Shown in pieces: positions 7,616 to 53,053 of a stretch of DNA of 64,000 nt. A model generated the notes under the pieces. That model saw only the letters and a list, made by a program, of their open reading frames with translations, did not search any database and was not told the DNA's origin. Made by a program: the position numbers and the translations under genes. Within the stretch, counting starts at the first letter, position 1; every line of letters starts with the position of its first letter. The stretch lies in assembly GCA_010015805.1 (NCBI GenBank), contig ML978133.1:248001-312000 (forward strand). Direction: 5' to 3'. This stretch comes from Rhizodiscina lignyota. Its lineage: Eukaryota.

Positions 7616-7810
7616 AGACATCGCTATTGGACATTCACAGTACCTATGGGTGGAGCCATCGAGTTATAAACCTCAACTCTCATGAATTTGACTGTCTAAA
7701 TTCTGTCGCCAGTCAGCATTAGCCGAGATTTAGAATTTAGCAAAAGTTATTAAACATGACGTTGGAGCTCATCGATTCTGAATTGGCTAAGCCTGCAGAT
7801 GAAAACCACA

Positions 7811-10092: not shown

Positions 10093-10500
10093 TTATCGAC
10101 TCCACGCTCTTTCCATGGCCGCAGGTATCATAAAATTCACGATTCTTGAATAGAAGCAATAGCTTATGAGTCAATAGCTGACAAATACGGGGTACTCGGT
10201 GAAAAGCAATTGCCAAGCCGTTCGGGTGCCCCTGGTGCGGAGATTTTCTGAAGCTTGCTTCGTCTGACGACTCCACAACGACGGAAATGCGAGAGGGCCG
10301 ATCTGCTTTGCAACGTCTCCTGCGGAATATTTGCACTGAGAAGTGGACAATAGTTTTTATCACCAAGTGAGGACATGAGCATTTGATCACGTTCCTGATT
10401 GTTCCTGCTACTTTTCCTTCCGTGGCTATTCACAAACTAGCCACATGGGCACATTCGTATACTTTCTCCTTCCCCTTTACAAATGCATCCTTCGCCCTGC

Positions 10501-31413: not shown

Positions 31414-32575
31414 CTAAGCGAATATCCGAAGAGGGTAGTTCGGCAGATAGAAGCCGGGATCGTTAAACCGCAAGTTCTTATCCAGAGCCGATATGGATTC
31501 CAGCTCGCCAGCGGTCAGGTCGAACGAGATAACGTCAAGATTTTGCTTGAGCCTCTCGCTGCTGTTTGACTTTGGAATTACAGCAACATTCCTAGGGGAG
31601 GCCTTTCAGTCAGCGTGCCTGTCACTTGAGACGTCCGCTGACTTTACATACCTTTGCGTGGCCCATCTCAGCAGGACTTGAGCAGGAGTGACCCCGTGCT
31701 TCGCCGCGGCAGTCTTCACCGGAAGAGCATTGAACAGCAATGGGACATCGGCTGCTCGCTCACGAAATTTGTCGGGAAGTTCAAGAAACGATTGCGGCCC
31801 AAAGGACGAATATGCCGTTACAGCGATCCCATTTTCTTGTGCCATTTGAATGAGGTCCGGCTGTACTAGATACGGATGATGTTCGATCTGCAGCGACGAA
31901 ATTGGATGTCTCGCATAGCACAGGATATCGTAGAGCATCTGGGCCTGGAAGTTGCTTACTCCAATGCTCTTCGCGATGCCATCATCGACGAGCTGCTCAA
32001 GGCTTTCCCACGTTTCGCGGACTGGGACACAATCTGGGCTCACGGTGCCTTCATCGTCCATCCACCATGCCTGTTTGTTCGTTAGTATGCCGTGCTCTAC
32101 GAAGCTGCGCAGCAGTGCAGTAACTTACTGGATATCTTCGAACTTCTGGGTCAATGTACTTTAAGGCAGACGGGAAGTGGATCAAGAACAGGTCAATATA
32201 ACCCAAGCCCCAGGCATCATTTTGGGCCTTGGCCATCTTCAGCGCATGCTCTTTCCGGTGATAATTGTTCCACAGTTTGGTTGTTATGAATATATCTTCA
32301 CGTCGGACGAGACCATCGCTGATGGCACGTCGAATGCCTTCTCCTGCCTCTGCTTCATTTTGATAGTCGTACGCTCCGTCGAACAGTCTGTAGCCAACTT
32401 TAATAGCCTGGTTCAAAGAGCATTAATGGAATGTTTTCATCAAGTAGAACTCAGTTATAGAATTTCCTACATTGTATACGGTGTCGGCGCAAGTCTCTCG
32501 AGGTACTTTCCACAGTCCGAAACCAGCCAGTGGCATCTCGTGGCCCGAGGCGAGTTTGACTGTGTTTCTCGACAT
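31414..32575 (-). CDS. Aldo-keto reductase, NAD(P)H-dependent D-xylose reductase-like (AKR2B-like), 4 exons
   Basis: [98 protein letters not shown]. Confidence 0.92.
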
Positions 32576-33003
32576 TCTGATAGATTAAAGCAAGACGATT
32601 GGAACCTGTACACCCTAATTCTTTATTTCTTCGTTCCGTTTGTATATAAGAGGCTCCATCGCTTAGAATTCCGAATCGGGTCTCGGTGGCTATTATTGCC
32701 AAAACGGGCGTCGAAGTCTTCCCCGTGCCCGCCACAGTCAATTGCTTTGATAGTGCGAACCATTGTTGAGGCTTCCTCAGATCGCCGAAGATTTGGTCTG
32801 GCATTACATGGAATTTCGTCTCGTTTAAAGGAGTTATTTCCGTCCTTCAGATTTCTCCGCGTTTCGCGTTTGTGTGGGGAAGCCCCCCGGCAGAAATTTC
32901 CCGCGGCAATGGGAGCCACCACCTTCCAAGCGGAAGACTTGCCAACTCCTTCAATTCTTGCCCAGTTCTCAACTTCCAATCATCTCAGCATGCTCTCAGC
33001 TTG

Positions 33004-35104
33004 ATGCCTCAGAACGAAGCTCGTGTTGTCCGGAAACGAGCGCGGACTGGTTGCGCGAGATGTCGGCTCAGACGCCGCAAATGTGTGTAATGTCTTCGTC
33101 CCTGGAAAGCTCGCGCTGTCCTCTGTACTTACGTGTAAAATAGGCGGCGAGGAGAAGCCAAAGTGTCGCAATTGTATTGAGAAAGGGTTTGAGTGTAAAT
33201 ACAGCATACAATTGGCCTTCCACAAGCACAAGGCATTCACTACTGGGCCAGATGAAGCTCCTCCAGCTGGAGCTGTGGGAAGTTATGGCCCCATTAAAGT
33301 ATGAGGTCTCTATAGCCCATACTGGATGATATTGACCATTTACTGTTAGTTCGTAAATGACACTCCCGACAAGAGATCAAGGAATACGAGGTCAACGTCA
33401 GATGGTTCCTCCCGGACAACAACAACTGAGATTGATGTCGAAGAAGTCGGGATTGCGCCTGAACATTTATTACCTACATCCAGTGAAACTCAAGCATCTC
33501 CTACCAGTCAACAAGGCTTCAGAGGCGCTCAATTCGAGGATGTTTTGGATCTTCCTGAATCTATTACCACGGGCTTGGAACATCAAGAGTCTCCGCAACT
33601 AATACGGAGTCCATTGTCCCCGAATGACAATTTCACTCGACATGAATCGGCGGTACACGGTCTACTAGCACTGAGCAATCCGACAACCGATCAAGTTGAT
33701 ATTGGCCATGATCGTCCTGTCACGTCTGCCGGTAGCATTGATGCAATTCCAGAATACCAGCATTCACCGGTGACGGGCAGGAGCGGTTCCTTGGAGACGC
33801 TGCAGTCGTTGCAGACATTTCTATCAGCTCGTCCGCCTAATAAAGTTCATGCGGCAATTAGGCAAGAGTCGTCTGACAATTCCCAGGTGTCTCCCTCCTC
33901 AGAACGAACGGTGCAACTGTTCAGCCACTACAGGTATCATGTGGCACCATGGTTGGATAATTGTGATTTGACTCAGCAGTACGGTGTTCGAGTGCCACTC
34001 ATCGCGAAGGCGTCTGATCCCGTCCGCTTTGCAGTCATGGCGGTAGCTGCGAGGTCTCTTGGCCTGAGCGACCGAGCCCAAGGGACCATCGACTTTGAGT
34101 GCAGCAGGTATTGGAGTTTAGCTCGGGATTCACTCGAACGAAACCCTCTGCATTCAGATGTTGAGCGGCTACTGGTCCGTAGTTTCGAGGCCGTATTCGA
34201 TTTTACGACGCGAAGTTGCCATAGCTGGAAAGAGCTGATTGACGGTCTGAGACAAGATCTGGCTGCATTTCCATCTGTTGCGCCGGGTAGTGAACCCATT
34301 AATGCCATCTCATGGCTCCACTTGCGCTTAGGTAGAGTCGCCTCTTCGTTGATTTGGTTACCTTGTAAATTTGGGCTTCTCAAGCTGACAGTTACTTGTA
34401 TAGCCCTGGCAGCAGCACTTCTCGGAGGGGCCACTGTTAAAACTTCGGTAGCCTCTTCGTCTTCATTCACAAGACCTCCCGCAGTGCACAGTGCCGTGAG
34501 CGAAAAGCTGTCGGAGAGTGCCAACAATGTGCTTCTACTGTGCGCGCAAGTAACGAGGTTGCGGTACGGAGAAGACCATCCAAGCGGTTTTCAAGGAAAC
34601 CTTCGCGGTTGTACCCTCCTTGACACCTGGAGAGCATTTTGGGATGATCTGCAGCAATGGCACGACACTCAACCGCATGAGTTCCTTCCTGTTATCGAAA
34701 TAAGTGCGGAAACCTTTCAATACGACAGCAGCCTTCCTTTTTCAACTGTAGTGTTCTCAACTGGCGCAGCCATCTTTGCAAATCAGCTCTACCACACGGC
34801 GCTGCTTCTCTTGCTGCAATGCAAACCTCGAACACTGCGGCTCAAGGAACAGCGAGGGGCACCAATATCGCAGCTGTGGCATGCACAACGTATCTGCAGT
34901 ATTGCGATAAACAACGACAGCGGCGATAATTGGCACCCAACGCTGGTGGTATCACTTTTGCTTGCAGCAAAACTCATGACGCATGCTTCACAGCAGCAAG
35001 CGATCCTGCAGCATTTGAAGCATGTCAGGGCCATAACAGGATGGGAAATCCAAGATATCGCTCAGATCCTGGAGGAGGAGTGGCATCCAGCTGACGTGAC
35101 CTAG
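33004..35104 (+). CDS. Zn(II)2Cys6 transcription factor, multi-exon
   Basis: RKRARTGCARCRLRRRKC|GEEKPKCRNCIEKGFEC; C-terminal fungal TF domain (YRYHVAPWLD, ANQLYHTALLLLL, LWHAQRICSI). Confidence 0.9.
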
Positions 35105-35116
35105 GCGACTGTACTT

Positions 35117-36870
35117 TCAAGTAGCACCGCTGAGATTATAACCCCAGGCATCCTCGAGATCTGGAATGCGCCAGCAAACACCCCAGCCAGTGGCAGCTTC
35201 GATCGATCTAAAGAGCTTTACAAGCTGCGCATGCTCAGCCTTGTGACTGAGACGCTGACCTGCAATCCATAGTGGCTGGATGGCATTGTTGAGACAACCA
35301 TGGTGCTGATTTGTCCAAGATATTCCGCAGATACGCCTCGCATGCCAGAGCTCTGAGCTTACATTCCCCTTTCCGAGCTCGACAGCTTTCGGGGCAGTAC
35401 TGAGCAGGAGAATGCAGGCAGTGTGATACAGCTGATTGGACGAAATTGCAGCCCAGTGCCCGAACAGAATTTGAGGGAAGGGCTTGCTATCCACGTTGTG
35501 GATGGGAACCATGTCGGCAGGCCGGTCAGCGGTCCATGCTTGAAGCTCGTTCCAAAGCCATAACCAGGTGCTCGCAAAATCGTGGGCATCGCAGCCATTC
35601 TCTTCTCCAAGTTCGACGTACTTTGTGCGCCGAGCTAACAAGTGGCATACCCTAGAGCAGAGATATACGGCGTAGTTGGCATGCATGTCGGAACTTCCAG
35701 AAGCATGGAAATGGTGGCGGAGATCATCGTCTCGCATGCCAGGTGGAACCCAGTTCTCTATCCTCAGTAGAGTGCTCTCAGTGCCATCCGAAATTAGTGC
35801 ACCACAGAGGTCTGCAGCACCATTAGCAAATAGAACAATACGATAGAGACATTTTCCTAATATTAGCGCTCACCCATCCTTGCATAACACCAAAAGACGG
35901 CTTGATCGATTCCACCGCTCAGGCCATTAATGTCGAAAGCTTCAAACAAGGCAGCACATCCTTCAAGATGGCGGCGCCAGTCTTGCGCGCTAGCAGACAT
36001 CATTTCCAGGCAGCAAAGAATAACACAAGCTGGAACGACACTGGGGTCACGAGCCTGGAGGAGAGGGGGAAGTCGGCGTATCGCTTCTTGATATAACTCG
36101 AGGCTGTCAAACGACGAGCCCGGTCGTGATATGCGCTCCATTTGTCGTGCCGATATGGCCAATATTGCATATAGCAGCGCTGGAGAATGTCGAGCTAACG
36201 TTGGAAGTTGGATACCGAATGTTCGTTCGGCATCAAACATATCGAGCTGTGAGGAGAGACATTAGCTTAGAAGTATATTGATTAAACATTGACCGGACCA
36301 TACCCAAGGGGCAACAATTCCGATATACTTTCTAAGATACTCGATTCTTTTAGGAGTTGATATCACATCTTGCATGATATTGTGGGAAAACAGTCCGACT
36401 TCGGACTTTGTGCCCTCGAGCACGGGGCTTGCAGCGCGCGTAGGTGCGTTGGACTGGGCATGATAGAAAAGCAACGAGCGCAATTCCTGTTGCGACGCGA
36501 GAAAACTGGGATCAAATGCAAACTCATCGAAGGTTGCAATAGTGAAGGGCGAGTGAAATGACTCGGCCATCTCGAGGCTGAGCGACGTTGACGGATCTAT
36601 CGTCTGATCTGTTTGGTGTCGGTCCAGCGCGCTGATGGTCGAGGCAGCATAGTTCGAGTCATTGGAGCGAGCTGTAAATGCAGAGGTTATAGACTCCTGT
36701 AAATTGCCGGGCCTTTCGTGAGGCGAGGGTATTGGATTGTGATAGATTGTTGAATGTGGAGAGGTCGCGTCGGCCTCTGCAGCCCGTCCACTCGGGTCAG
36801 GGGCGGCGGGTGGTTGCGTATGCCATATTGGTAAATCTTCGCCGCTGCTTGGAGTAGGAGTAGGCATCAT
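35117..36870 (-). CDS. Fungal transcription-factor-domain protein with no visible Zn cluster, at least 3 exons; 5' end uncertain
   Basis: YIGIVAPW|LDMFDAERTFG, LLYAILAISARQME, DWRRHLEGC, FWCYARM, ISSNQLYHTACILLL, LWHARRICGIS; paralogous in its C-terminal motifs to the convergent TF. Confidence 0.82.
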
Positions 36871-37638
36871 GTCTGGATGCCAGTTGGCCTCCGACTCTCA
36901 GAACTAGATGCCTCAGATTTCTAGTAGAAGAGCAGTGTGAGAAAAGTTTGTTTGTGGCAATTGCTATTGGGGGCTATTAAATGGGACAAAGTGGCCGCGC
37001 CCATGTTCTAACTTGGTTCATCGATATCGTACAGCCTCGTTGACTCAGCAAAAATACTCTATTCCCGGCTCAACTTCGGCCGAACTGGCTCATACCCTGC
37101 ATATGCTACTGGAAAATGTCAAATCTACGCGACGTGTTGAGGGAGACTGAGTTCCGTGCTGCGCGGTGAACAGACTCCAGGTACTGTAGCATCAATCAAA
37201 CTCGCGCCGTAATGTAGAAACTCCAGGTCTGTTCTTTGTGTATGAGGCAGAGGCAATAAGGCGAAGAAAGCATGACTGCCGTCTAAATGGTGGCTGAATC
37301 TACAGGCTGATGGATTGGCTGATACACGAAGTAGCTGCATGAAGCTGGATTGACCAACAAATACTTTCTCCGGAGTTATCTTTTTTTAGTGGCAACTTCG
37401 GTGAATCCCAACCCCGCACATTTTCACTTTCAGCTTCAGCCTTACGATTTTTGTTCACTTCTCGACCGTCCTCCAACCTTGCTTATTCCTTGCTATCGCT
37501 CTAAGGTCTCTGGTCTTAAGTACGGCGGAGTCTTTGGTTCATTACAAATAACAAGTATATAAATTAGGCTACAAAGGCAACGATTGCTGCTCAGGAACTC
37601 GGATTCAAAGTTAATTTGCATCGTATATTCTATGAGAG

Positions 37639-40153
37639 ATGGTGAGGAACCATGAGGGTGTAGGGACGAGGGAGATGGTGGTGCCGCAATCTATTCCACA
37701 GATCAGGATGAGCATCCGCAATATCATTCATGGGCACCTTGACAAATATAAAGATGTAAAACGGGGAGGGCCGGCGAGGCCTGCCACTTTGATTGTCGTT
37801 GAGTTTCATATCCAACACAACAGCGCGTATCAGCGCGTGAGAAGAGCCGAGATCACCGTATCGTTCGCAACATTGCCGGGGGACGATCCTTCGATCAATC
37901 AGGAAGTATATCGCATTGCTCCTAACGGCGGGTACCTTCTGGTATGTTACCGAAGCAATTCTTTTCTCCCTCATCTACTGGAATCAACATAGTGGCATCA
38001 CCTTAGTGTCTGAAGTCTACAATATTTCCAGTTATGATTAGCTGACAAGTTGTACCAAGCTTCCAGATGAAGACCATCCTGGACAATTCAAGCTGGCGAG
38101 AAAAGATAGTTATGCAGATCATCAAGACGAGATAGCAATGTCGGGCTTTGTGAACTTCTCAGCTCACGCCCAGGTCACTAACAATGACTTGGAGAACGCT
38201 GCCACTTGGCAGATCAACGAAAATAAGAAGACGAAAGTGGGAATCCCTAACCTTATCCAGACTGCGCTTTTGCTTCGACCACCTAGTGATGAAGGAAGAC
38301 TCGAAATGGAGCTGCACACCAAACTCATAACATCTGGATTCTCTTTTGAGCCCGCTGCGAGATTTAACCTCCTTAGTAACGAAACCATAAGCTTCGATCC
38401 GAACCTTCAATTCCCGACCTTAGATGGAGTTAATTCCCAGAACCTTGACAATGTCGATCTAGCGATGTTCTTCAAGGCTGTATTCACTCGTCAAGACTCG
38501 ATCACAGCTACAGGTGACACCGAGCAACAAAGGCAAGGTGCCATCCAAACGGCCCTGGGAGCCATAGCACATAAGGAGGCCAAAAAGCAAAGCCGCTCAC
38601 CCCGACCTCCGAGCGCGAAACTCGATGAAAAGATTCAGCCTGGAGAATACTTTTATGCGGAACTGTGGAGCCGTGACTCCACACGTGCGCCAATTACCAA
38701 CAGAACTGTAGCTGTTTCCGGATCGAAATTTGATCCAGAAATTAAAGCGCTAGACAAGACCGTGCTTGAGAAATACTTCTCTTGGGTGCATGAAGACCCG
38801 CCTCTGCCCTCAACGGTAAGACAGATTCAATTTCATGCTTAAATGCACTGGCAAACGGGAATCCAGCGATTGGCATTTGTTGCTCCCCGAAGGTTCGCAC
38901 ATCTCTTTTAAGTTTTGAAAGTAGCTATTTACAACTTGAGGACACTCCAAACACGAAAACAGCATCCCTTACCCTGATGTCCACTTCTTTTGTTCTAACT
39001 TTGGCTGGCTAGGACCGAGATTCGGCCATGCAACCGGAGCCTAAAATGAAAAATATATGTTCCCTGATGTCAGTTCTCAAATATCTGCCTTTAATGGCCG
39101 GTACTAAACGATAATAGTGGACGTCAAGGTGAAACTGCTGGCTGTCAGAATTTGAACGATTTGAATGCCCTCTTCAGTAAGCAAACATGGCTCTCGCTGA
39201 CGGAATTCTTCCAACTACCAACCGAATTTTCCAGTTTCCGTGGGCATGATAGCGGCATCTGGCTGCGAGCGATCTCTAGTCAAGGCCAAGATTTGGCGTA
39301 TTTCTACCAGACCCCATTTTACCCAGAAAAGTTTTGGTCTCTGGTCCTGTTTATCCGTGGAAACTCAACAAACGGAGCTGCTGTACTGCAATCGGACAGC
39401 AAAATAGACTGCCAGGGTGTTCTGCAAAGAGCGAAGGAATATGGCTCCAGGGGCTCACATCCGCTGATAGTACTCGTATTACTTTTCCAAGATCACGTCT
39501 TGGGAACTGCGGATAAATTCAAAGACGTGTCAACGAAAATCCAGGCTATAGATGCCGATCTTCTGGCCGAACTGAAAGCCGCACAGGGCCACAAGACCAA
39601 ACTCAGGGTGTCCGAGTATGGCACGTTAAGCCATCGAATCTACGAGGCTCGGATGGAACTGGTTGAACTTCAGCGACGACGCGAATTTGAAGCCCAAGTT
39701 GGCAAGACTTTAAAGAATGATGTGAAAGAGGAGACATCTCTCATTACCCGTGTGGACATGTTCACGGGACTCTCCGCCAGCCACGAACTCGGCATCCAGA
39801 ACTTTCCCGATAGAATCGAAAGCCAGCGTACGGTTCTGTATAGCTTAATCGCTCAGCAAGATGCCAGAGTTCAGTTCAAGCTAGCCCGAGAAACTACGAA
39901 AGACTCGAAAGCCATGAAGACGCTTGCAGTAATCACCATTCTACTGCTCCCCGGCACGTTCATGGCTACGTTATTTGCCGTTCCGGATCTGATTACGCTC
40001 AAACCCAGAGCGAAAGTCCAGATATACTGTGGGGTTACTGTACCTGCCACTTTTGTGTTGATCGTGTGCTGGTGGCTGTGGGTGCGAAGAAGTGCGTCGC
40101 ACGTACCGGGCGAAGATGAAGAAGCTACGAGGGAGAAGGCGAAATGGCTGTAA
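37639..40153 (+). CDS. Uncharacterised multi-exon protein with a C-terminal CorA-like two-helix membrane domain (probable exons 37639-37941, 38060-38815, 39013-39068, 39118-40153)
   Basis: In-frame GT-AG junctions found by eye; N-terminal RPATLIVVEF..ITVSF..IAP..W.INEN..GIP.LIQTALLL motif string; C-terminal LYSLIAQQDA..DSKAMKTLAVITILLLPGTFMATLF plus a second TM helix. Confidence 0.6.
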
Positions 40154-40837
40154 TTGGAGCTCTGTATCGAGAGGGCTTTTATCTGGGCCAGGTCTATAGA
40201 GGGTTGCTTCCACTGTTCCACAAGAGCTGATTCTGAATTATAGCTAGGCATATCGTGACTCCAATTGTTTCTCTATAAATTATTAAATTGGTTATGCCAT
40301 TGTTGAACTTGCCCAGAAAAGAAATCGGTCAGCAGATTTGTGTGAGAAATTATATAGATATTCTCGCTTACGTCGATAATTAGCAATTGTTCCGAGAACT
40401 CTTACCACTTCCGCTCTATCTTATATATTCTCGATCTGTGCAAAGTCTTCTGGTGAAAAATTAATCTCTCGATTTTAAGGAATAGCATATATAAAATGGT
40501 GTGGCCGGAAGAGTGTATCTATGACCGAGTAAGTTCGCTTGCTTCTTTTGTGCAGCATTAGCTGTAATCCGTATCAAGGCTACGATGCGTCACACTTAAT
40601 TTTCCTGTTCTGGCACTCAGTACCAAACTGCAGTCCCTTATTCTATACCATAGGTTTAATAGAAGTGGGAAGTCTCCTTGCGTCATGGAATCACGTTATA
40701 CTAGCTCTAGTTCGTGGTAAACCTTAGTGGACAAAACCGCCATCATGGTATCTCCACATAGCATAAATACGATGCAAACTTTACTTCATACTCTGCCAGT
40801 CCTAAAACCTTTCCGATCTATTTTCTGTTCCTCCAAA

Positions 40838-41134
40838 ATGGCGCACGACAAAGTCTGGTACTCCCTCAAAAGCAACGTCAACTACGGAAAGGGCCAGCGC
40901 AAATGGTTGCAATCTATAGTACACCATTTTGCAAACTGTGAGCGCTGATTCTTGATCAATAGTCGCGTGGCGGGCGAAAAGGGTAATGGCCTTATTCGCA
41001 AGTATGGCCTGAATATGTCGCGACAGGCTTTCAGGGAGAAAGCTGAAGACATGGGCTGGAAGAAGGTTCGTGTAGAAGCGTACTTTTTGCTGGAAGAGAT
41101 TAGCCATTAACGACGGATTATACAGTATCGATAA
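40838..41134 (+). CDS. RPS29: 40S ribosomal protein S29 (uS14) homolog lacking 3 of 4 zinc-binding cysteines; exons 40838-40905, 40963-41065, 41126-41134; 59 aa
   Basis: Spliced translation [59 protein letters not shown]; exon lengths 68+103+9=180 nt; GT-AG introns with branch-like GCTGAT and [23 protein letters not shown] and RQ.FREKA are uS14 hallmarks. Confidence 0.92.
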
Positions 41135-41629
41135 ACCATGAGGATGGGATGAAGACCCTTGGATAAGAGTGATCATTGAGGATCTTTGGATAGATTGGGA
41201 TAAAACTGGTGAAGCGCGCGACTCGACTAAGCACGTTACCAGCATATTGACCTGTGACGCCTGCTTCAATCAACTGCAGCTTAATCATCTGAATCCCGCA
41301 CACATTGCGACACTTTGTCTAGTTACGTGCAGATTGCCTTTATCCTCTCACGAGCTTTGTGTTTGAATTTTGTGGCCTAGCATAATGATGATCAAGAGCA
41401 TTGTTAATTTGTTAGCATGACATTCCGAGCCTCCAGCCTTGACCATTAGGGTGAGTATCCACAGCATACCATGATGGCTTATTATGTTTGTGTTTGCAAA
41501 AGAGACAGATATGATTGGCCCCTGCCTTACACCATGTTAAGTAAGAAAATATATAAAGCTCTTTCGCGCTGAAGCTTTAATCCACTGTCGCCAGGTGCTG
41601 ACTTCTTGAGCAGCAAGGACGGAGCGAAA

Positions 41630-43472
41630 ATGGTTGCCACGCGATCCATCACGAAGCAGAACAACGTCCTCAAGGTCAAGTCCCTTGCTGTCACGGAAAA
41701 GTCAAAGAGAGAGCAAGTACAGGTATTGCCCGTTACTTTGCTGTCTGGGTTTCTGGTCAGAAGTCCTAGCATCAATCAATGGAGAATACGCTGACAACGA
41801 AAATTCAGGGAAGCGGAAAGACTACACTTTTGCAGCATATCCTACGCAGCAATCATGGCCTACGTATCGCTATGATTGTCAACGATATCGGCTCGTGGGT
41901 CTAGAGCCGCCCACACATAACAGACTTCCACTAACGCAGATTCCCAAGCATCAACGTCGACGCATCTCTCATTCGCAGTACCCATCACCTCACCAAAACA
42001 GAAGAGAAAGTCGTAGCCCTCCAGAACGGCTGCATCTGCTGCACGCTCCGTGGCGATCTACTTGAGGAATTAATCCGTCTCTCTGAGCTCGCCGAGTTCG
42101 ACTATGTCATAATTGAGAGTAGTGGGATCAGCGAGCCAGAGCAAGTTGCTGAGACCTTTGATGCGAGGTTGGCGGAGCAACTAACTATTGTTGGAGGAGC
42201 TGGGGCCGAGGGGAACGGACTGGATGAGGCGACACTTGCTGCGCTCCAGAGGTTAAAGGATGCTGGTGGGCTGGAGAAGTTTGCGAGACTGGATACGACG
42301 GTTACGGTGGTCGATGCTTTTACCATATTTAACGATTTCGACACCGATGAATTGCTGTCCTCACGGCGGGATGACGTTGTCCCCGAAGATGAGCGGACAA
42401 TTTCTGATCTCATGGTCGACCAGATCGAATTCGCCGATGTTATCGTTCTCAACAAAGTGGACATGGTCAGCAAAGACACCAAATGCCGGATCAAAGACCT
42501 CATCAAAAAGTTGAATCACCGCGCCAAGGTGCTGGAGAGTGAGTTCGGTAGGATTGAGGTTGAGCAGATCGTCAACACGGGATTGTTCAATATGGAGCTT
42601 GCGCAGACAGGTTATGGGTGGTTGCAGGATTTGCATGAGATGATGTTGCGAGAGGTTAACGGGAAGAAGACGGTCACACCGAAGCCTGAGACAGAGGAGT
42701 GAGTTTCATTGATGAGATGTTCGAAGCTGTGGGAAAGCTGACAGTGCGGTGCAGATACAATGTGCGCAACTTTGTGTACACTCGTCATCGACCGTTTCAT
42801 CCTCGTCGATTGTTCGAGTTGGTGTATGATAAATTCATCCTGCGACAGCAGTTCGACGATGATGGAGAACTCGAAGACGAGGATGTTCCCGAGGAATGCG
42901 ATGACGATGAAGACGATGAAGACGATGACGACCCCCTTTTCTCTCCCCCAAGCAACGAAACCATTCTCGCCAACAAAGCCGCCCACCCTCTATTTGCAAA
43001 GCTGTTTCGCTCAAAGGGCGAGATATGGTTAGCGACCCGCCCTGACCGCGCCGGCGAATGGTCGCAAGCTGGTGCCATGCTGACCTTACAAGGTGGGCGG
43101 CCTTGGTTCTGCGTCACTGATCCTGTTGAGTGGCAGACGGGAAACAAGGAAATTGATGAATTGGTGGAACACGATATAAAATCTGGTGGTGTCTGGGGTG
43201 ATCGGAGACAGGAATTGGTCTTTATCGGGGAGAATTTGGACATCAAAGGAGTAGAAAAGGAGCTTGATAAATGTCTCTTGAACGACGAGGAGTGGAGAAT
43301 ATGGCAGGGAATCATGATGGATGGTGAAAGGCCGGATGGTGGGGACCAAAGTGAGAAAGAGGTGAAGTTTGAAAGACTGGCTGAGGCATTTGAAGATGTA
43401 TTTCCGGACTGGATTGATGATAGGCATGATCACGATCATACGGACGGTGATCATCCTGGGCATGTCCACTGA
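41630..43472 (+). CDS. COG0523/CobW-family G3E P-loop GTPase (zinc metallochaperone); exons 41630-41755, 41809-41894, 41949-42698, 42755-43472; 559 aa
   Basis: LPVTLLSGFL|GSGKTTLL Walker A, IVND, metal motif GCICC, IIESSG Walker B, DQIEFAD, NKVD, RPFHPRR, RSKG, GDRRQELVFIG, His/Asp tail HDHDHTDGDHPGHVH. Confidence 0.95.
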
Positions 43473-43552
43473 ACATTAGCGACACTGACAAGTCCGCTAA
43501 GATCTGATAACCTACACAAATACACGCACCATCCAACAAGTCTGTTAACCAC

Positions 43553-44673
43553 CTATCTAGGCAGCAATTTGTGATTCTGCTTCCCCCACTTCATCTGATT
43601 ATCCACCTGATCAAACTTCTGTGAATTTGCCGCCTTTGCATAGACCCATTCCCTCGCCCGGCGAGCCACCGCCTCGCTCCTCTGTGCCTTCTTCTCAGCC
43701 AAGACGAGCGCCTGCCGCTGTTGCACCGAAACGCCTAGTATGCTCATCTCTTCACGGCGCGCCAGTTGTCGGCCCGACGGCAGCTGCGGTCCGACGTCCA
43801 GTGGCAACGATTCTGCATCCTCGGAACCCGAGGGCAAAGCTTTCATCGTCGATTCCGCGAGACTCCGTCTCCTGGACGCTTTCTTAGGCGCGGGAGCAGC
43901 ATGTCTCGAGCCGATCACCCTACCAGAGGCGAAGCGGATCTCCGTCGCCGACAGGTTAGTCAGGCGTTCCTGCTCCAGCGCGGCGGCGCCGTCCCCGTCG
44001 ACAGATGGCGGGGTCTCCCAGAAGTCGAGCAGTTCCGGTTCCCTGTCCAAGTTCAAGAGACAGTGTCCCTTGTCTCTCATGTGGCTCTGTATGCTCAGGG
44101 TCGAGGGCTTCGTGGCGCCGCAGTAAAGGCATTCGTGCCACGCCCGGACCTCCGTGGCCAGGTAACCCACGAAGCTCTGCATGTCTATCACCATCTCCGG
44201 GTCTGGGATGAACATCCCATGAGCTGTACGCATGTGCTCGAGGTTCGTTGCAAAGCCAGCGTCGTCGCTTGCGAAGCCCCGGCTGCAGAACAGACATTGG
44301 AAGGGCGATGCGCTTTCCTCGCACTCGTTGTCCGAGGCCTCCTCGTCGCTGCTGCTACTGCTGCTTCTGCTGCTGGTAGATGCCTTGCTGATGTCAACCT
44401 TTTTCTTGATCTGTGTGTCGAACGCATCGAGGGGGATCGGCGGTAATGATGCAATGCGCCGCTTGATGTTGTATACGCTGTTCTGATGTCAATTCTCATG
44501 ATCTAGACCATAGTTGTGTCGGTTTCGACGTACTGCCATGGCTCTTTCATGTGTATGCGCTGCTCCTGCCCATTTTGGAAAGAAATGTGGCACGTAGTGC
44601 ACAAGTAGGTTGTTGATGGGAGTGGGAACGGCGATTGCTCAGCATCCAGGTTGGAGGACGTAGCGCTTAGCAT
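43553..44673 (-). CDS. Rei1/Reh1 (ZNF622)-family C2H2 zinc-finger protein, shortened divergent form; 2 exons (intron 44478-44533); 354 aa
   Basis: CTTCHISF..QRIHMKEPWH|VYNIKRRIASLPPI, CLFC..NLEHMRTAHGMFIP, CLYCG..IQSHMRDKGHC, FASGRVIGSR. Confidence 0.85.
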
Positions 44674-44832
44674 TGCTTCAGTGATAACTAAGGAAAAGAA
44701 GGATCAATTAAGATGTTCGCGACCACAGCGGTGAATTGATTGCTCGTTCCTATTGTCAATCACGATTGAAAAGAGTTGATTGAAGGAAGAAAGCTCACTG
44801 CGGGCGGTGTGATATATACACACGGCAAAGGC

Positions 44833-44847
44833 CGCTAAGGCTTAGCG
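44833..44847. promoter_or_regulatory. Perfect inverted repeat CGCTAAG-G-CTTAGCG upstream of the Rei1-like gene
   Basis: 7-bp arms with a 1-bp spacer, about 160 bp upstream of the ATG and just upstream of a TATATA element (44813-44818). Confidence 0.35.
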
Positions 44848-45177
44848 AACACCCTCCGGTACTTACATACTCTAAAGACATTGTGTTACGCGCGGATGGG
44901 CAATTCCGAGTACATCGTAGACACAGCCGACTGAATTGAGTCATAATTAGTGGTTGGAGGACTTGCGAGGCTAACTGCAGGCAGAGTTGGATATCAAACT
45001 TATGTCTCAGAATGATTCATTCGCACTACTGCACAGCCATGGGATGGGACCCACAAACTTCCACATTAGGAATGGCGTTGCTCCACGCCGCGATAAATAT
45101 GGGGTTCTAAACTGGGTTCCGCTTCCGACAGACGCTCTTTGCGGAGAATATATTAATTAATTACTTCGAAAGAATAG

Positions 45178-47492
45178 TTACAGCTCTACAAATTCCCTCC
45201 GCAAGATTTCGTCGGCTTTGATCATGTCCAGATACTTGCCCACCTTCTCAGTCATGACTTCCCTTTCGTACCCGAAGAGCTTGTATACCAATTTTCCAGG
45301 GAGGCTGTGTCCGAAGCTCTTCATGCTAATACTCGCATCTGCGTAGCGCTCCCAGCCATTCGACACATAAGGCTCAATGACTACTGCAGGTACACCCTTG
45401 TGCCGTTGCAAGACTTGCCGCTTGTAGTCAACAGGCTGCGCTTCAAACAATCGTTGGCAGGGGAAGCTAACGACTCGTGCTCGAACTCCTCTTGTCTTAT
45501 TCAGATCCTCTGCAACTTCAAGTGCAAACGACAATTCTGCACCTACGCCGATGATAGTAATATCTGCGGGTTCAGAGCCCGGGGCTTCTTCTAAGACGTA
45601 TGCGCCACGCCTAACACTCTCGCGCTTGGTTTGCGTAAGTTGAGGAAGCGCGTGTCTCGATGTCGAAATGATAGTCGGAGTATTCTTCGATTCAATAGCC
45701 ATGACCCAAGCGCCAGCAGTCTCCTCGCTGTCGCCCGGTCGGATGTAGAAGAGATTAGGCATGGCTCGATATAGCGCAGCCAGCTCGATGGGCTGGTGCG
45801 TGGGTCCATCCTCTCCCATACCAATCGAGTCATGCGTTGCGGCATGTATTACTTGTAGCCTCTGGAGAGCTCCCATTCTGACAGCAGGTGCAGCGTAGAG
45901 GTAGAACATGAAGAATGAGCTGGTGACCGGAATGATTGTGTTAGGGGAGAAAGCCGCAAGTCCGTTCGATATGGCTGCCATGGCGTGCTCGCGTACGCCA
46001 TAGTGAACATATCGGCCTTGATATGTCCCGTCCAGACCACACGTGGTCCTAAGGTCCGGATGCTGGAATGCAATTTTGTCTGGATATGCCATATGCACGG
46101 ATGGCGACAAGTCTGCCGTACCAACCATAAAACTCTTCACCTTTGCTGCCACCGGTTTGAAAACAAGCCCCGAGGCTGCTCGGGACGCTGTGGGTTTGCT
46201 TGGAAAACTTTCTGGAATGAGCTTCTGCCAATCCTTGGGCAGCTCTCCTCTCATTCGGCTTTTAAACTCTTCGGCTAGCTCCGGATGCGTTTGTGTGTAT
46301 TCCTCAAGAAGCTTGTTCCAGCTCTTGACGTGTTCTTCTCCACGCGATGGGCATTCTGCGAAGAAGTTGCGCACAGCATCGCTGATGATGAAGTGCTTAT
46401 CAGGATCCAAGCCATACAATCGCTTCATATTTGCGACATCTTCCACACCAAATGGCGCACCGTGTGCAACACCTTGGCCAGCGACCTTGCTTCCGAGACC
46501 AATGATGGTCCTGATGTTGATGAAAGTTGGCTTGTCCTTTGAGCGGCGTGCGCGTTCTAAAGCGTCTACTATGCCACGGATATCGAAGCAACCATCTTCA
46601 ACATCGATAACATCCCAACCACAAGCTCGCATCTTCATGTTGACGTCTTCAGAAAATGTGATGTCCGTTGTGCCATCACAGGTCACCCCGTTGTTGTCGA
46701 ACATAACTGTAAGATTGTTGAGTTTCCAATGTCCCGCCAGTGAAATTGCTTCTAATGCTACTCCTTCTTGCAGACAAGCATCCCCTATCATACACCATGT
46801 ATGGTTCGAAACGACATCGAATCCGGGGCGATTGAAGGTGGCACCGAGGTGCTTCGTAGCGGCAGCCAGGCCAACGGCGTTTGCAATACCTTGACCAAGT
46901 GGGCCCGTAGTAACTTCAATTCCCTCGTGCTCTATCTCTGGATGGCCAGGACAAGGGCTGTCAACCCGATCGGAATGGTATGACTGCAGGTCCTCCAGCG
47001 ACATTGCTTTGTAGCCTGTCAGATGGAGAAATGTATACTGGAAGAGACATGCATGGCCTACACGACGATATCAGCCGCCCAATCTCACATTACAGGCGTG
47101 GTGATAACAGACCATTCGAAAGGACAAATCGATCCCGATTAAAGTAGTCTGGAGTGTGCGGAGCATATTTCATTGCATACTTCCACAGTGCAACACCAAT
47201 CGCTGCCATTCCAATGGCACCTCTTTGGAAACAAGTCAGCCTTCACAACTTTCAACGATTGTAGAGGAAATTTGCAAACTAACCCTGGATGGCCCATATT
47301 AAACTGCTGGCAGAGGTCCGCAATTAAAATCCTGAACGTCTCCAAAACGTGTTCCTCCTCTTTCGTCAACGAGTTTGGGGCTTTAGCCTCCAGATTGCGC
47401 TCCTGCTTGAGGCCATTGACGACAGCATCGCCATACGCCTTGTGGCCATTTGTGTCCGCAGGTGCGGTGGTTTGACTTGTCTGAATTGCCAT
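45178..47492 (-). CDS. Transketolase, dihydroxyacetone synthase (formaldehyde transketolase)-like subgroup, 3 exons
   Basis: CQQFNMGHPG, NRDRFVLSNG|HACL, GHPE, TTGPLGQG, TPP motif GDACLQEG...DNN, YGVREHAM, THDSIGMGEDGPTHQPIE. Confidence 0.93.
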
Positions 47493-48050
47493 TGTATGTC
47501 AAAGTTATGTCTCTGCGTGAAGCCGACAAGGAAAGGAGTTTGCGAGACATCGAGCTCGTTTTGAAGGTCTCTTCGATGTCTGCCATTGACTTTCCGCATC
47601 TTCTGCATACCCTCTCGGACCGTGTCTGTGGAGGAGGTTTCTTACCGAAGTCGGTCGGCCGCGGCACTGGCATCACCACTCTCTGGGAAAGGCAGTTCGA
47701 GGCACAGTGGTCAAAGGTGGAGTTGGTGGCTAAGTTGCTGTTTTGGGATGGGTGGAAATAAACCGGCAACAACCCCTGTAACGCCTCCGCCGAGGGGTCC
47801 CCGACGACCCTTAGACATCAGTGTGTAGCAATCCGATGGACGAAAGAAGGTGTTCGGTATGGAGGTAAGCGAGCGTTCGAACTCTTCTGCTTGAAGTGAG
47901 GTGCCGGCTCTGGTTTCCTTGTGCGGAACGATGTGCTCATTATCCCAAAGTTCACTCGCCAAGTTCCATTTTCTGTACTTTTGATTTCCATTTCACAGAC
48001 CTTTCCTCTTCATTGCCTTCTCTCATTGTGTTTATATATTCTTTGAAATA

Positions 48051-49503
48051 ATGTCCCCTTCATTACTGATAGACCAGCCGTCACAGAATGGTACGGCTCA
48101 GCCCTTGACAGCAGCGCCATATGGTGCTGGACCTCCGCTAAAGAATGGGTTCGAAATTCCGACGACCATTGAGGACGTTGCTCAAACAAATCCAGAGCTG
48201 CGAAACAATCCGTCTCTACAAGTAACAGCCGATCACCGGATCAAGATGGTTGAAGCTCCAATACACGCACCTGGGCCCGGGGAGGTACTTCTTCATATCA
48301 AAACCACAGGAATTTGCGGGTGAGCATTCTTCTGACTTATTCCGCCATCTGTGCAGCTCTGATACTAAGCATATAGGTCTGACATACATTTCTGGAAATC
48401 TGGGGCCATTGGCTCGCTCAAGGTCGAAGGCGACTGCATTCTTGGCCATGAGGCTGCAGGCGTTGTTCTGCAGTGCGGAGAGGGAGTATCAAGCCTCAAA
48501 AGAGGTGCGCTGTCAACTGAATGGCTCTAAATCTGACATGCTGATAAGTTCGCAGGCGACCGGGTCGCCGTAGAGCCTGGTGTTCCTTGCGGCCAGTGCT
48601 TCTTATGTTCGGATGGCAGATATAACCTATGCGAAGATGTCCAGTTTACAGGCGTTTATCCATACCACGGTACGCTACAAAGATATAAAGTGCATCCGGC
48701 AAAGTGGTTACACAAGTGCGTAGGATTTGCACGCTATCCCCTAGACTTGCTAATATATCGAAGGATACCGGATAATGTCAGCTTCGCAGAAGGTGCTTTG
48801 CTGGAACCGCTCTCTGTTGTATTGCACGGCATTAACCAGGCAGGCCTGAGTCTCGGTCGTGGGGCTGTCATCTGCGGAGCAGGTCCAATCGGATTGATAG
48901 CTTTGGCCGCCGCCAGAGCTTCCGGAGCACATCCTCTGGTTATCACCGACCTCGAACCTCGACGGCTCGACTTCGCGAAGAAATTTGTCCCAACCTGCAG
49001 AACATACCTTGTGAATCGCAACTTGGGCAATGAGGAAAACGCCGCCGCGATACGTCAGCTCTTTGGTAGCGATGAATACAGTGCTCCGCCAACAGTCCTC
49101 GAGTGCACTGGTGTCGAGAGCAGCATCTGCACAGCGGCATTCAGCGTCAGAAGAGGTGGGACTGTTATGGTCATAGGGGTGGGGAAGCCGGTGATACACA
49201 ATATACCATTCATGCACATATCACTTGCAGAGGTGAGTGATACTGAACTGGGTTGGAACGCCGCAAGAAAGAGCTAATGTCAATTAGATCAATCTGAAAT
49301 TCATCAATCGATATCGAGATACCTGGCCAGCAGGGATTTCTGCACTCGAGGGAGGCATTCTGGACCTAGGGCCCTTGGTTTCTCACGTATTTCCACTAGA
49401 CGGTGCCCTGGATGCTATGCAAATGTGCTCCGATCTCAGCAAAGGTAGTATAAAGGTGCAAATCGTCGACAATGTAGATGTACTTTCAGCAATCGATAGA
49501 TAG
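48051..49503 (+). CDS. Zn-dependent polyol dehydrogenase, L-arabinitol 4-dehydrogenase paralog (LadC-like), 5 exons
   Basis: NPSLQVTADH, GICG|SDIHFW, LGHEAAG, structural Zn CGQCFLC..YNLC, GVYPYHGTLQRY, GALLEPLSV, ICGAGPIG, FINRYRDTWP; stop TAG 49501-49503. Confidence 0.9.
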
Positions 49504-50052
49504 TATTGATACACCCTTCTCCGAATTTTTTGAAGTTCAGGTACTATACTTCGTAGTTCGCAACAATCGAAGTCGGACGGAATGCCGCCGCACGTCGGCG
49601 GAAAAACAACCGAACCAACCTCATGCCCACTTTTCCACCACAAAAACTTTGATATGCGTTTCCATTAATTTGGTTTCGTCACAAATAATAATTCTTTCCC
49701 CAAGAAGGCAATTAAACCCACCTAAGGGTTTCAAAAGGGCAAGTCAAGCGCCGCCACTTGTCGGATAACCTATCGGAGATGCCACCGTAAATTTGCGTGA
49801 GATCTACATTGGGCAGCTCATCCGACACGAAATAGTCAATCTGGGGTACGGAGACGTGAACAATCTGGGGAAAGGGTTCGGCAAGATGAAGCCGCCAGCC
49901 TGTGGGTCCGTAGTTGGTGTCGTGATCTGAAGCATGGGATACTCTGCCAGGGCCTTGGCCACAGATATATCTCCCGGTTCTCGTCTCCAAAATCACGGTT
50001 CCAAAATCTCTCATCACTGTTTCTTTCTTCAGCTGCATTCTCAATTCGCATC

Positions 50053-51854
50053 ATGAAGTTCGACATCTTCGGACGTGGGTTTAGCCTACGCTTGGCCATC
50101 ACGGTGGCCTGCGAGATGGCCTTCATCCTCTTTGGTGTGTCTATAATGCGTCGCATGGTATCACAGAAGTATCTAACTGCTGTCGAAAGGCTACGACCAG
50201 GGTGTGTTCTCTGGGATTGTTGGCAATACCGACTTTCTCAACGTTATGAATCACCCCAGTCCTGGATTACTAGGTATCATCGTCAGCATCTACAATCTCG
50301 GGTGCTTCAGCGGATGTATACTTAACTTCTTCTTTGGCATTTACTTTGGTCGGCGTCTTTGCATGTGGATTGCCATGGCATGGATCATTGTATGTTCCAG
50401 TCTCGCTGTGCAAATGCTTCGCTAATAGTACCAGGTGGGTGCTGCTTTACAAGCTTCGGCGTTCTCGGTGCCACACCTGATGGTCGCTCGATTCGTGACC
50501 GGCATCGGAACAGGCATCGAGACGTCCACTGTGCCAATGTACCAGGCCGAGCTTTGCAAAGCCCATCAACGAGGCCGCCTTGTTTGTTCAGAAGCCCTCT
50601 TTGTGGGTGTCGGAATCGTCATCGCATATTGGTTTGATTACGGGTTTGTCGCTATGCGCCTGGAGAGAGCTTCTGTAATATTAATCTGTACCAGGCTGCA
50701 TTTCAACGATAATTCAATCGCATGGCGAGTGCCTATAGCTTGCCAAGTTGTGTTCTGCTTCGTAAGTACCAATGGTACGGCTTGCCGACGACAGTTGCTG
50801 ATTTTCCAGGTTGTCATCGTTCTCGTATTCGGTCTCCCAGAATCACCTCGATATTTGTACGTGAAGGGCAAAAATGAAGAGGCCCTCAAAGTCCTTTGTG
50901 ACGTGTACGACCATGATCCAAATCACCCGGATACCGTCAAGGAGCAGAATGACATCCTTGAAGCCATTGCTCTGGAGTCGCAACATACCGCTACCTGGTG
51001 GGATATCTTCAAACAGGACGAAGTTCAGACCGGAAAGCGCGTTGCCCTTGCATACGGCATGCAGTTTATGAATCAAATGGGAGGCATCAACCTGGTCGTC
51101 TACTTCGTTCCAACCGTCTTGCAAGAGAACGTGGGTCTAACGCGGAACTTATCCCTACTTCTCGGCGGTGTTATCCAGTGCATGTTCGTCATCGGTTCCT
51201 TTGTGCCGTCTCTACTCGTCGACAAGGTTGGCCGCCGGTGGCCCATGATGATTGGTTCTGCTGGTTTGGGCATCTCCATGATGCTCATATCTATCCTGCT
51301 AAGCTTCAAAGGAAGTTCCAACGAGAAATCCACGTCCGCCGCCAGCGTAGCATTCTTTTTCACATATATGCTGATATTCGGTGCGTCGGTTAACTGTATA
51401 CCCTGGGTTTACGTCCCGGAGATTCTCCCGCTCAAGGCTAGAGCCAAAGGCACTGCTGTCGGCATTTCATCGAACTGGCTTTGGGTTAGTACTCAGTCCC
51501 ATCATGTCTCCACTTACGTACCTGACAATTCCGCAGAACTTCTTCGTCGTCATGATTACTCCTGTGATCATCACAAACTTGCAGTATAAAGCTTACATAA
51601 TATTCGTCTGTACTAACTTCGCTTTCATTCCACTGATTTACTTCTGCTACCCGGAGACAATGAACCTCACCCTCGAAGAGATCGATTACTTGTACACGAA
51701 GCCTGGAGTATCCGCGCGTAAAGTTGCGGACGAGTTACGGAAAAGCCATAAACAGCATGGAGCGAGCCCCGAGGAGGCAATGATAGAGCAGGAAGAAAGT
51801 GGGAAGAGTACTCCGCCATTTGACGTTCATGAAATAAACCACGAGAAACTGTAA
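50053..51854 (+). CDS. Sugar porter family MFS transporter, multi-exon
   Basis: LFG|YDQGVFSG, FGRR, RFVTGIGTG, VPMYQAE, LPESPRYL, QFMNQMGGIN, VDKVGRR, PWVYVPEILPLKARAKG, YPETMNLTLEEID. Confidence 0.94.
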
Positions 51855-52237
51855 AGGCGATATGCCGGTTTGGGCATAGTCGCCCTAAATTGGGACTAGT
51901 GTGGATTAGTCATCATACACGCAATCCTCTATGTCTACACAACAACTCTTGTACTTAGAACCTCCTCCTAGCAGATTGAGTTAATTTAATACCACTGCTC
52001 CTCTCTCTCCTTATTGACAGCCTATTATGAGTTGTCCCCTTCCCGGCCTGTTACGGGCCAGAAGAGGGGTGAATGCTGATATGCTGTGTCTTGCTCGTCG
52101 TACGATATTGTATGTCGGACCGACGGCGATGAAATAAGAAAGAGAATCAGAGCATTCATCACTAGTCAAAGAACATTTCTGATTTTCATTCATTCATATA
52201 TTCTGAATATCTACACTTTGCTGCTGCCGTCCATACG

Positions 52238-53053
52238 CTATGAAACCAAAGAGGCGATGAAATCGGACGCTGCCTGTGCATGATTTGGAACTTCATTGGA
52301 GTGCACGGTGTCGTCGTCGCCATCGGCGCAGAAAGGATCGCCGCTATCACAGTAACTCTGGATGACGCTGGCGTACGTGTTCAAAAGAGCAAGACTAGCA
52401 CCATCCGAGGAGCGAGCAAAGATTCCAGAGCTCGTTGAAGAACCAGCATCGAAAGACTGGCCAACGGTAAAGGTTGGATCACCGAAGACAGCGACACCGA
52501 CGACTAGTTCAGACCGTTAGGACCTATTTTCTACCAAATTTGACCTGAAGAAACATAACCTTACTTACTATTTGACTTATAAGTGCTGCTCAATGGAGCC
52601 GGCTTGTCGACACCTCCAGCAAGTACATCGGTCATAACATTGCCTCCCTGGCTGTAACCCAGGAGAACAATCCGACTCGAAGAACCGCAAGCGCCAACAT
52701 ATGCGGTTATCTTGTCGATAGTGTCGTTGATTCCGTCTGTGACCGACTCCGGATAGATGGAATCTGAGACCTCTTGTCAGTTTTCGGAACATCTAGAAGT
52801 ACATTGGTGGTCTCTTACCATCGCTGATGATGGCAGCTGGATAGTCAACCGCAACGGAGGTTGAGCCCGGCACGGCGTTCTTGATCAATGTCGACACTTG
52901 TGCCATCTTGCCTTCTCCTGGGTCTTCGTTGGAGCCGCGTGCACTGATGATATAGACACCAGACACGCAAGTGACTTGGCGAGGCTCCAGAGGAAGCGCA
53001 GCGACACCCGCGGCCACGGCCAAAGCGGCAAATGAGGACGAGATTCGGACCAT
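52238..53053 (-). CDS. Secreted cutinase/acetylxylan esterase (CE5, Axe2-like), 3 exons
   Basis: Signal peptide MVRISSSFAALAVAAGVAA, ISARGSNE, VDYPA, nucleophile GYSQG, VFGDP, SYCDSGDPFC..H. Confidence 0.9.

Follow-up and report, generated by a model that had tools for sequence, protein, structure and literature searches.

In the pathways by which fungi catabolize pentoses and D-galactose (XyrA/LarA, LadA/LadB, XdhA/SdhA and XkiA), an NADPH-dependent aldo-keto reductase (AKR) converts an aldose to a polyol, an NAD+-dependent zinc medium-chain dehydrogenase/reductase (MDR) oxidizes the polyol to a ketose, and a Zn2Cys6 protein acts as regulator. A small polyol cluster is likewise known from Yarrowia lipolytica, where, in the portion of the record drawn on here, the erythritol genes (EYD1, EYK1, EYI1/2 and EUF1) combine a dehydrogenase that makes a ketose, erythrulose, with a dedicated transcription factor. 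Transketolases with specialized roles are found elsewhere: the dihydroxyacetone synthase (DAS, EC 2.2.1.3) of methylotrophic yeasts is a full-length, thiamine diphosphate–dependent paralog of the housekeeping transketolase and separate from it, and the bacterial D-apiose pathway uses a transketolase, in an aldolase's place, as the carbon–carbon-cleaving step of a rare-sugar route. The bacterial enzyme described by Carter et al. in 2018 is reportedly split into two subunits, with a kinase supplying its phosphorylated ketose substrate, apulose 4-phosphate. We compared these systems with a locus of the dothideomycete fungus Rhizodiscina lignyota, using a window of 64,000 nucleotides (contig ML978133.1, positions 248,001–312,000) in which positions 31,414–53,053 had been predicted to form a single, kinase-less sugar cluster, possibly for apiose, comprising a xylose reductase–like AKR, two transcription factors (TF1 and TF2), a DAS-like transketolase (TK), a paralog of L-arabinitol 4-dehydrogenase (Lad), a sugar porter and a secreted esterase of carbohydrate esterase family 5 (CE5). 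The conserved core appears to be smaller than that cluster, but real: we give roughly even credence to a small inducible catabolic module made up of a LadC-type dehydrogenase and a divergently transcribed cytosolic DAS-like TK, together with TF1 and TF2.

The core of this proposal is the TK–Lad pair, which shares one divergent promoter. We scored pairing by consecutive locus tags in species for which the TK and Lad match lists both show tags, and found the two genes side by side in seven of nine such species (Penicillium chrysogenum, P. sp. IBT 18751x, P. atrosanguineum, P. frequentans, P. hordei, Apiospora saccharicola and Rasamsonia byssochlamydoides); in 17 further species the TK and Lad matches were compatible with linkage, which is weaker evidence. 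A pattern scan of JGI metagenome contigs provided another 80 fungal loci around DAS-like TKs (L001–L080), which were assigned to clades using a neighbor-joining tree built from Kimura distances, without support values (six partial genes were placed by nearest neighbor). The clade of the window TK contained 20 of these loci, 16 with at least 1.4 kb of sequence upstream, and 15 of the 16 had a Lad ortholog (60–78% identical) divergently upstream of TK, about 570–600 bp away; because many of the metagenome loci come from near-identical taxa, these counts overstate independence, and about six of seven non-redundant lineages carried the pair. Chance adjacency of TK and Lad was rejected on these synteny counts, and the pair proved to be conserved as a unit in Eurotiomycetes, Sordariomycetes and Dothideomycetes alike.

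The same pair can be recognized in aspergilli, where its members already have names. The TK homolog of Aspergillus nidulans is AN8551 (75% identical to the window TK), and ladC is listed as AN8552 in the relevant table of PMC4021826; for A. niger, the passages of PMC6231085 that treat these genes give TktC as NRRL3_00895 and a LadA paralog as NRRL3_00896. The window Lad is matched to A. nidulans ladC indirectly, through this gene numbering. According to a supplement of the second paper (PMC6231085, mmc1), NRRL3_00896 and any DAS-like TK are jointly present or jointly absent in 21 of 22 genomes, with T. stipitatus as the exception, in a profile dominated by related aspergilli. The passages of PMC6231085 just mentioned place NRRL3_00895 and NRRL3_00896 in different pathways and give their adjacency without comment.

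The intergenic region of the pair is similar in size among relatives, with the innermost TK and Lad matches 566–892 bases apart in 12 related loci and 566–607 bases apart in 10 of them. In all 12, the word GCGGGG, which fits the CreA-type SYGGRG pattern, lies 250–360 bases from the Lad side, and the window promoter has GCGGAG near that offset and lacks an exact GCGGGG. The pattern hints weakly, as the 12 loci are mutually related, at carbon catabolite repression of the pair. We found no word common to the TK–Lad, AKR–TF1 and porter promoters of the window.

The window Lad is predicted to be an NAD+-dependent polyol dehydrogenase of the LadC type. Its closest solved structure is L-arabinitol 4-dehydrogenase of Neurospora crassa (3M6I, E = 1.4e-98), and its Cys/His/Glu zinc ligands and the NAD-type Asp after the Rossmann strand are intact, with the motifs GICGSD, GHE, LLEPLSV and VITD present in 108–113 of 113 homologs. 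At the two substrate-site positions that Rutten et al. (PMC2731777), in the part of that paper dealing with these residues, give as M70 and Y318 in A. niger LadA and as Phe and Phe in xylitol and sorbitol dehydrogenases (XDH/SDH), the window Lad carries Leu104 and Asn349, unlike the LadA type; the two positions distinguish LAD from XDH/SDH in specificity. Both residues are characteristic of the group (Leu104 in 110 and Asn349 in 108 of the 113 homologs), as is the signature FINRY (108 of 113). The same part of Rutten et al. (PMC2731777) considers that LadB and LadC likely differ from LadA in biological function, and in the passages that name LadC, neither that paper nor PMC8601170 reports a function for it. 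Our literature search found no published function for either LadC or the TK–LadC pair.

The TK is 100% identical to an annotated 732-amino-acid R. lignyota protein (P0002), contains Transketolase_N, Transket_pyr and Transketolase_C_1 domains in Pfam, and matches yeast TKL1 over its full length (E = 1e-175) at 40-odd per cent identity, whereas the split-chain transketolase 6YAK gave a weak partial match. Checking residues one by one in the alignment to the yeast structures 1GPU and 1TRK, we found H69, H103, H263, R359, S386, E418, H469, D477, H481 and R528 (TKL1 numbering) all kept, and the same ten positions were invariant in 19 of 19 DAS-like relatives. Four of them, R359, S386, H469 and R528, hold the substrate phosphate in the yeast enzyme. 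Since all of the TKL1 phosphate-binding residues are kept, one TK substrate is probably phosphorylated, and the earlier proposal that the enzyme cleaves a ketose without any phosphorylated substrate is unlikely. The phosphorylated partner could be either the acceptor, with glyceraldehyde 3-phosphate giving xylulose 5-phosphate plus a free aldehyde, or the donor, which would be xylulose 5-phosphate as in classical transketolase and DAS chemistry.

The motif GDACLQEG had been taken as the mark of a DAS subgroup. Its Ala does track the family, being found in 120 of 120 close TK homologs and in 5 of 150 distant representatives, although the motif is one residue away from the GDGCLQEG of yeast TKL1. 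The label DAS-like itself rests on the names of relatives, which are often automatically called 'dihydroxyacetone synthase' or 'formaldehyde transketolase'; no authentic methylotroph DAS was found among ten TK representatives checked (from Cylindrodendrum, Symbiodinium, Rhodotorula, Fusarium, Zopfia, Lactarius and others). The window TK ends in VEL, which is not a peroxisomal targeting signal of type 1 (PTS1), and the C termini of the 120 close homologs lacked a PTS1-type tripeptide (S/A/C-K/R/H-L/M) and were VDL or VEL in 105.

Comparison with related loci also supports a place for the two regulators beside the pair. TF1 is a paralog of TF2, divergent from the AKR gene and convergent with TF2; direct reading of its coding sequence revealed a Zn2Cys6 cluster that runs CARCRLRRRKC up to an intron and continues beyond it as GGEEKPKCRNCIEKGFEC. 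In TF2 no such cluster was found, neither within the gene nor upstream. In one metagenome locus (L037) the order Lad(−) TK(+) TF2(+) TF1(−) is collinear with that of the window; its TF1-like gene is convergent with TF2, has an intron dividing its zinc cluster where that of the window TF1 is divided, and is followed by the end of the contig before any AKR could show. TF2 orthologs (45–73% identical) directly follow TK in L037, L048 and L075, and the four genes that stand between TK and TF2 in the window are absent from that interval in L037 and L075. TF2-like genes also occur near other DAS-like TKs (L009, L010, L012, L017, L032, L036 and L053). The order, the orientation and the split zinc cluster of L037 bear out the suggestion that two transcription-factor genes belong with the TK–Lad pair, and TF1 and TF2 are likely part of the module, in which a DNA-binding TF1 and a TF2 without a binding domain might act as an activator/modulator pair. 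Among the long TF2-like open reading frames (ORFs), those of L010 and L036 contain Fungal_trans_2 only, and those of L012 and L032 contain Zn_clus.

The AKR, porter and CE5 genes are linked less consistently. The closest solved relatives of the AKR are yeast xylose reductases (5ZCI, 5Z6T and 1JEZ; E = 1e-38 to 2e-36 for one exon), and its exons have the Asp/Tyr/Lys/His tetrad context and the IPKSN..R motif of fungal xylose reductases of the AKR2B type. An AKR ortholog (65–75% identical) lies within 10 kb of a LadC-type MDR, a paralogous DAS-like TK and TF2-like genes in L074, and the AKR is a possible accessory gene of the module. The porter gene lies directly downstream of Lad, and the names that sources give its relatives include 'myo-inositol transporter 1' and 'STL1'. 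Non-orthologous Sugar_tr genes (23–24% identical) occupy the same position after Lad in L001/L002 and L014/L015, and the porter itself is a lineage-specific neighbor, not a conserved one. The CE5 protein has a signal-peptide-like N terminus and a GYSQGG motif. As a member of the module it was rejected, because no CE5 gene was found near any TK of the 80 related loci.

The original prediction had stressed the absence of a sugar kinase, and the window does appear to lack one: of the 129 ORFs that span 110 amino acids or more from stop to stop, 88 were scanned with Pfam, as were 25 regional ORFs, and no FGGY, PfkB, hexokinase or Dak domain was recovered; each of the 21 ORFs outside these scans overlaps a scanned gene, either on the opposite strand or in a different frame. 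FGGY, PfkB and hexokinase domains were also not found in 245 neighboring ORFs (139 + 106) around the 80 related TK loci, among which 6PF2K, BCDHK and fructosamine-kinase domains were present. The only sugar-metabolism kinase that we found adjoining any of the 80 TKs is a Dak1-domain (dihydroxyacetone/triose kinase) gene at L011:3308–4810 on the minus strand, 1.2 kb upstream of a DAS-like TK of another clade.

DAS-like TKs form many clades in the neighbor-joining tree, and MDRs with the FINRY signature lie no more than 7 kb from the TKs of three clades besides that of the window (L054/56/57, L067 and L074). The dehydrogenase next to TK in other clades is a short-chain dehydrogenase/reductase (SDR; L009, L013, L032, L038, L040 and L069), another MDR (L005) or an oxidoreductase of the GFO/IDH/MocA family (L080), so that a dehydrogenase beside TK appears to be a general habit of the DAS-like family. 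We also noted a gene for 6-phosphofructo-2-kinase/fructose-2,6-bisphosphatase directly upstream of TK in three loci of different clades (L036:7310–9028, L063:2–1308 and L028:3–602).

For a module of this composition, the most likely route would lead from a polyol to a ketose and then to transfer of a two-carbon unit. The polyol would be imported directly, here perhaps through the adjacent polyol/inositol-type porter, or alternatively would be made from an aldose by the xylose reductase–like AKR with NADPH. The LadC-type enzyme would oxidize the polyol to a 2-ketose, which TK would take as its ketol donor, passing C1–C2 to a phosphorylated acceptor; the simplest acceptor would be glyceraldehyde 3-phosphate, yielding xylulose 5-phosphate, and the remainder of the ketose would leave as a free carbonyl compound. 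Which way the flux runs, what serves as donor and acceptor, and that no kinase step intervenes are our inferences. That the module works as a polyol/ketose unit we consider moderately probable, and that the ketose is used without prior phosphorylation we put forward tentatively, as appreciably less probable. As for the substrate, a tetritol (erythritol or threitol) is quite unlikely and apiose improbable; nothing favors apiose over tetritols, pentitols or hexitols. A broader version of the proposal is similarly tentative, namely that Pezizomycotina may hold several paralogous pairs of LadC-type dehydrogenase and DAS-like TK, each with its own Zn2Cys6 regulator, through which rare polyols would enter metabolism independently of kinases by C1–C2 transfer onto glyceraldehyde 3-phosphate, with different pairs serving different substrates (tetritols, apiose, rare pentitols or hexitols).

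Apart from the redundancy of the metagenome loci and the narrow taxonomic base of the 22-genome profile, several observations weigh against the module and its proposed chemistry. The TK and Lad tags are not consecutive in P. manginii and P. angulare, in which the pair is apparently broken, and L023 is the exception among the metagenome loci of the window TK's clade in having a TK without the Lad pair. The 21.6-kb stretch is not one contiguous sugar cluster. All of the genes listed for positions 31,414–53,053 are present, but four unlisted genes without a sugar-related domain in Pfam (38.0–44.5 kb) split TF2 from TK, displacing the AKR and regulators 8 kb from the TK–Lad pair. Among the 80 loci, linkage of the AKR with a DAS-like TK is confined to one lineage (L074), and the enzyme could simply be the regular xylose reductase of R. 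lignyota. In seven species (Polytolypa, Saccharata, Zopfia, Lindgomyces, Lojkania, Thermomyces and A. aculeatinus) the porter orthologs are on different contigs from the pair. The Dak1–TK neighborhood of L011 appears to fit classical DAS chemistry and not ketose cleavage, and the intact phosphate pocket equally fits a xylulose 5-phosphate donor supplied by an unlinked kinase. In the xylose transcript table of PMC4021826, A. nidulans ladC has ratios of 0.32, 0.15 and 0.17 and therefore, as the values stand apart from the table's column definitions, is not xylose-induced there. Our literature search found no paper with expression of both TK and ladC, although other transcriptome supplements may hold values.

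The alternative that survives best, which we regard as somewhat unlikely, is a conventional side route for pentitols or pentoses, in which the ketose made by LadC (with or without the AKR) would be phosphorylated by an unlinked kinase such as xylulokinase, the DAS-like TK would be an extra pentose-phosphate isoenzyme acting on xylulose 5-phosphate, and the locus would lack a kinase only because the kinase gene happens to lie elsewhere. Such a route would account for the complete set of TKL1 phosphate-binding residues and for the resemblance of the AKR to xylose reductases. It also agrees with the sections of PMC6231085 that file NRRL3_00896 under L-arabinose and pentose catabolism and TktC under the pentose phosphate pathway, and that describe the fungal xylulokinase gene as single and unlinked to other pentose genes. 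The same sections of PMC6231085, however, record a separate housekeeping TktA in aspergilli, and the DAS-like family is marked by a conserved Gly-to-Ala change and by regulators of its own. LadC, moreover, is unlike both LadA and XdhA at the two substrate-contact positions, is listed as lowered in the A. nidulans xylose experiment as tabulated in PMC4021826, and belongs to the paralogs for which the cited part of Rutten et al. (PMC2731777) expects a function different from that of LadA.

It is unlikely, too, that TK and Lad are the only functional partners and that chance placed the AKR–TF1–TF2 block and the porter and CE5 genes close to them. The four unrelated genes between the blocks are what such an arrangement would produce, as are the inconstancy of the porter and CE5 genes as neighbors and the linkage of the AKR in one lineage only; against it, TF2 and TF1 in L037 come directly after TK, ordered and oriented as in the window, at least ten loci have TF2-like genes close to a DAS-like TK, and L074 unites an AKR, a LadC-type MDR, a TK and TF2-like genes.

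Very unlikely is a true dihydroxyacetone synthase, which would condense xylulose 5-phosphate with glycolaldehyde or with formaldehyde derived from methanol, methoxyl groups or methyl esters, while LadC and the AKR processed free dihydroxyacetone or erythrulose or regenerated xylulose, for assimilation or detoxification of C1 and C2 aldehydes. Methylotroph DAS is peroxisomal, whereas the 120 close homologs of the window TK have no PTS1-type tripeptide; the scanned window ORFs include no alcohol oxidase, formaldehyde dehydrogenase or Dak gene, and C1 fixation needs neither a sugar/polyol porter nor a polyol dehydrogenase. Many sources do name relatives 'dihydroxyacetone synthase' or 'formaldehyde transketolase', but these names are automatic annotations. 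The TK of L011 with its adjoining Dak1 kinase gene remains in favor of DAS function, as do the naming of the host from wood and the presence among the close TK matches of Paecilomyces variotii, a mold tolerant of formaldehyde.

The least probable alternative is the D-apiose route of the original prediction, from apiose through apiitol (AKR) and apulose (LadC) to dihydroxyacetone and a C2 unit (TK): apiose is reported from all primary plant walls, the enzyme types are compatible on paper and the small polar Asn349, in place of an aromatic residue, could admit a branched polyol, but the TK consists of one canonical chain that shares 40-odd per cent identity with TKL1, keeps D477 (which reads the C3 and C4 hydroxyls of the donor) and is unrelated to the split bacterial enzyme, the bacterial substrate, apulose 4-phosphate, is a kinase-made phosphate ester, linkage of AKR and TK is limited to one lineage, and our literature search found no paper tying fungi to apiitol, apulose or apiose catabolism.

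The window as a whole is fungal nuclear DNA with short introns, for which we derived gene models from Pfam scans of ORFs, introns read directly and annotated R. lignyota proteins mapped onto the sequence. The AKR gene divergent from a Zn2Cys6 factor, the second transcription-factor gene, the TK divergent from the Lad paralog, and the porter and CE5 genes that follow were all recovered where they had been predicted. The table lists these genes and those lying among them.

Table. Features of R. lignyota contig ML978133.1 between positions 31,414 and 53,053 of the window.
Feature	Position in window	Strand	Details
Xylose reductase–like AKR	31414–32575	−	Four exons, read directly; Pfam Aldo_ket_red
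TF1, Zn2Cys6 transcription factor	33004–35104	+	Zinc cluster split by intron; weak Fungal_trans_2
TF2, regulator-like	35117–36870	−	Fungal_trans_2
Gene without Pfam match	38042–40153	+	Two long ORFs
RPS29/uS14-like ORF	40805–41269 (about 40.8–41.3 kb)	−	
CobW GTPase	41610–43472	+	Pfam cobW and CobW_C
zf-C2H2_2 protein	43553–44488	−	Pfam
DAS-like transketolase (TK), 732 aa	45178–47492	−	Exons 47492–47283, 47221–47111, 47058–45178
Shared divergent TK/Lad promoter, 558 bp	47493–48050		
Lad paralog (LadC-type zinc MDR), 413 aa	48051–49503	+	Five exons; annotated protein P0122
Lad exons	48051–48319, 48377–48504, 48556–48715, 48764–49232, 49288–49503	+	
Major facilitator superfamily (MFS) porter, sugar/polyol type, 516 aa	50053–51854	+	Annotated protein P0242; Pfam Sugar_tr
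Secreted cutinase/CE5 esterase	52238–53053	−	Pfam Cutinase

The flanks encode housekeeping proteins, which by Pfam include an arrestin-domain protein, a 4HBT thioesterase, a CBF/Mak21 protein and a class II tRNA synthetase. Among the genes that interrupt the sugar genes and are unrelated to them, the RPS29/uS14-like ORF adjoins the gene for the CobW-family GTPase, and the two look like a zinc-sparing pair; the second of the two ORFs of the gene without a Pfam match ends in two hydrophobic stretches resembling a membrane anchor. Farther to the left, positions 737–12,222 hold genes for a pyridine-nucleotide disulphide oxidoreductase, an SDR, a Zn2Cys6 factor (3733–6111, minus strand), a DJ-1/PfpI protein and an MFS transporter, which may form a separate small metabolic cluster.

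A conserved divergent pair that recurs in at least four TK clades and has its own regulators unites two orphan annotations in a single unit that can be tested. The name LadC was in use before 2009, with no function reported for the enzyme, and metabolic models carry the DAS-like TKs of non-methylotrophic molds with an assumed formaldehyde reaction. Our literature search found no published function for mold DAS-like TKs and no report of a catabolic transketolase for erythritol or erythrulose in Aspergillus; papers on 'formaldehyde transketolase' were, by title or abstract, not functional studies of molds, and transketolase was not mentioned in the T. atroviride BarSeq paper. Should TK take the ketose directly, the module would add an entry step of a new kind to the sugar catabolism of fungi and could supply a route that is missing for some polyol of plants or lichens; otherwise it would still be an unassigned pentose or polyol branch that current models misplace.

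Set against the systems from which we started, the proposed module keeps the logic of the fungal pentose and D-galactose pathways but differs in its enzymes and their arrangement: its dehydrogenase adjoins a transketolase and not a kinase or second reductase, and is of a LadC type with Leu and Asn where LadA has Met and Tyr and XDH and SDH have Phe and Phe. Unlike methylotroph DAS, the window TK lacks a PTS1, has no methanol-pathway genes nearby and is paired with a polyol dehydrogenase. It differs from the transketolase of the bacterial apiose pathway in being a single chain of 732 amino acids, with no linked pentulose or hexose kinase in the window or in related loci. The erythritol cluster of Yarrowia, in the portion of the record considered here, uses an erythrulose kinase and isomerases, whereas the window has neither linked, and it is a transketolase that adjoins the dehydrogenase.

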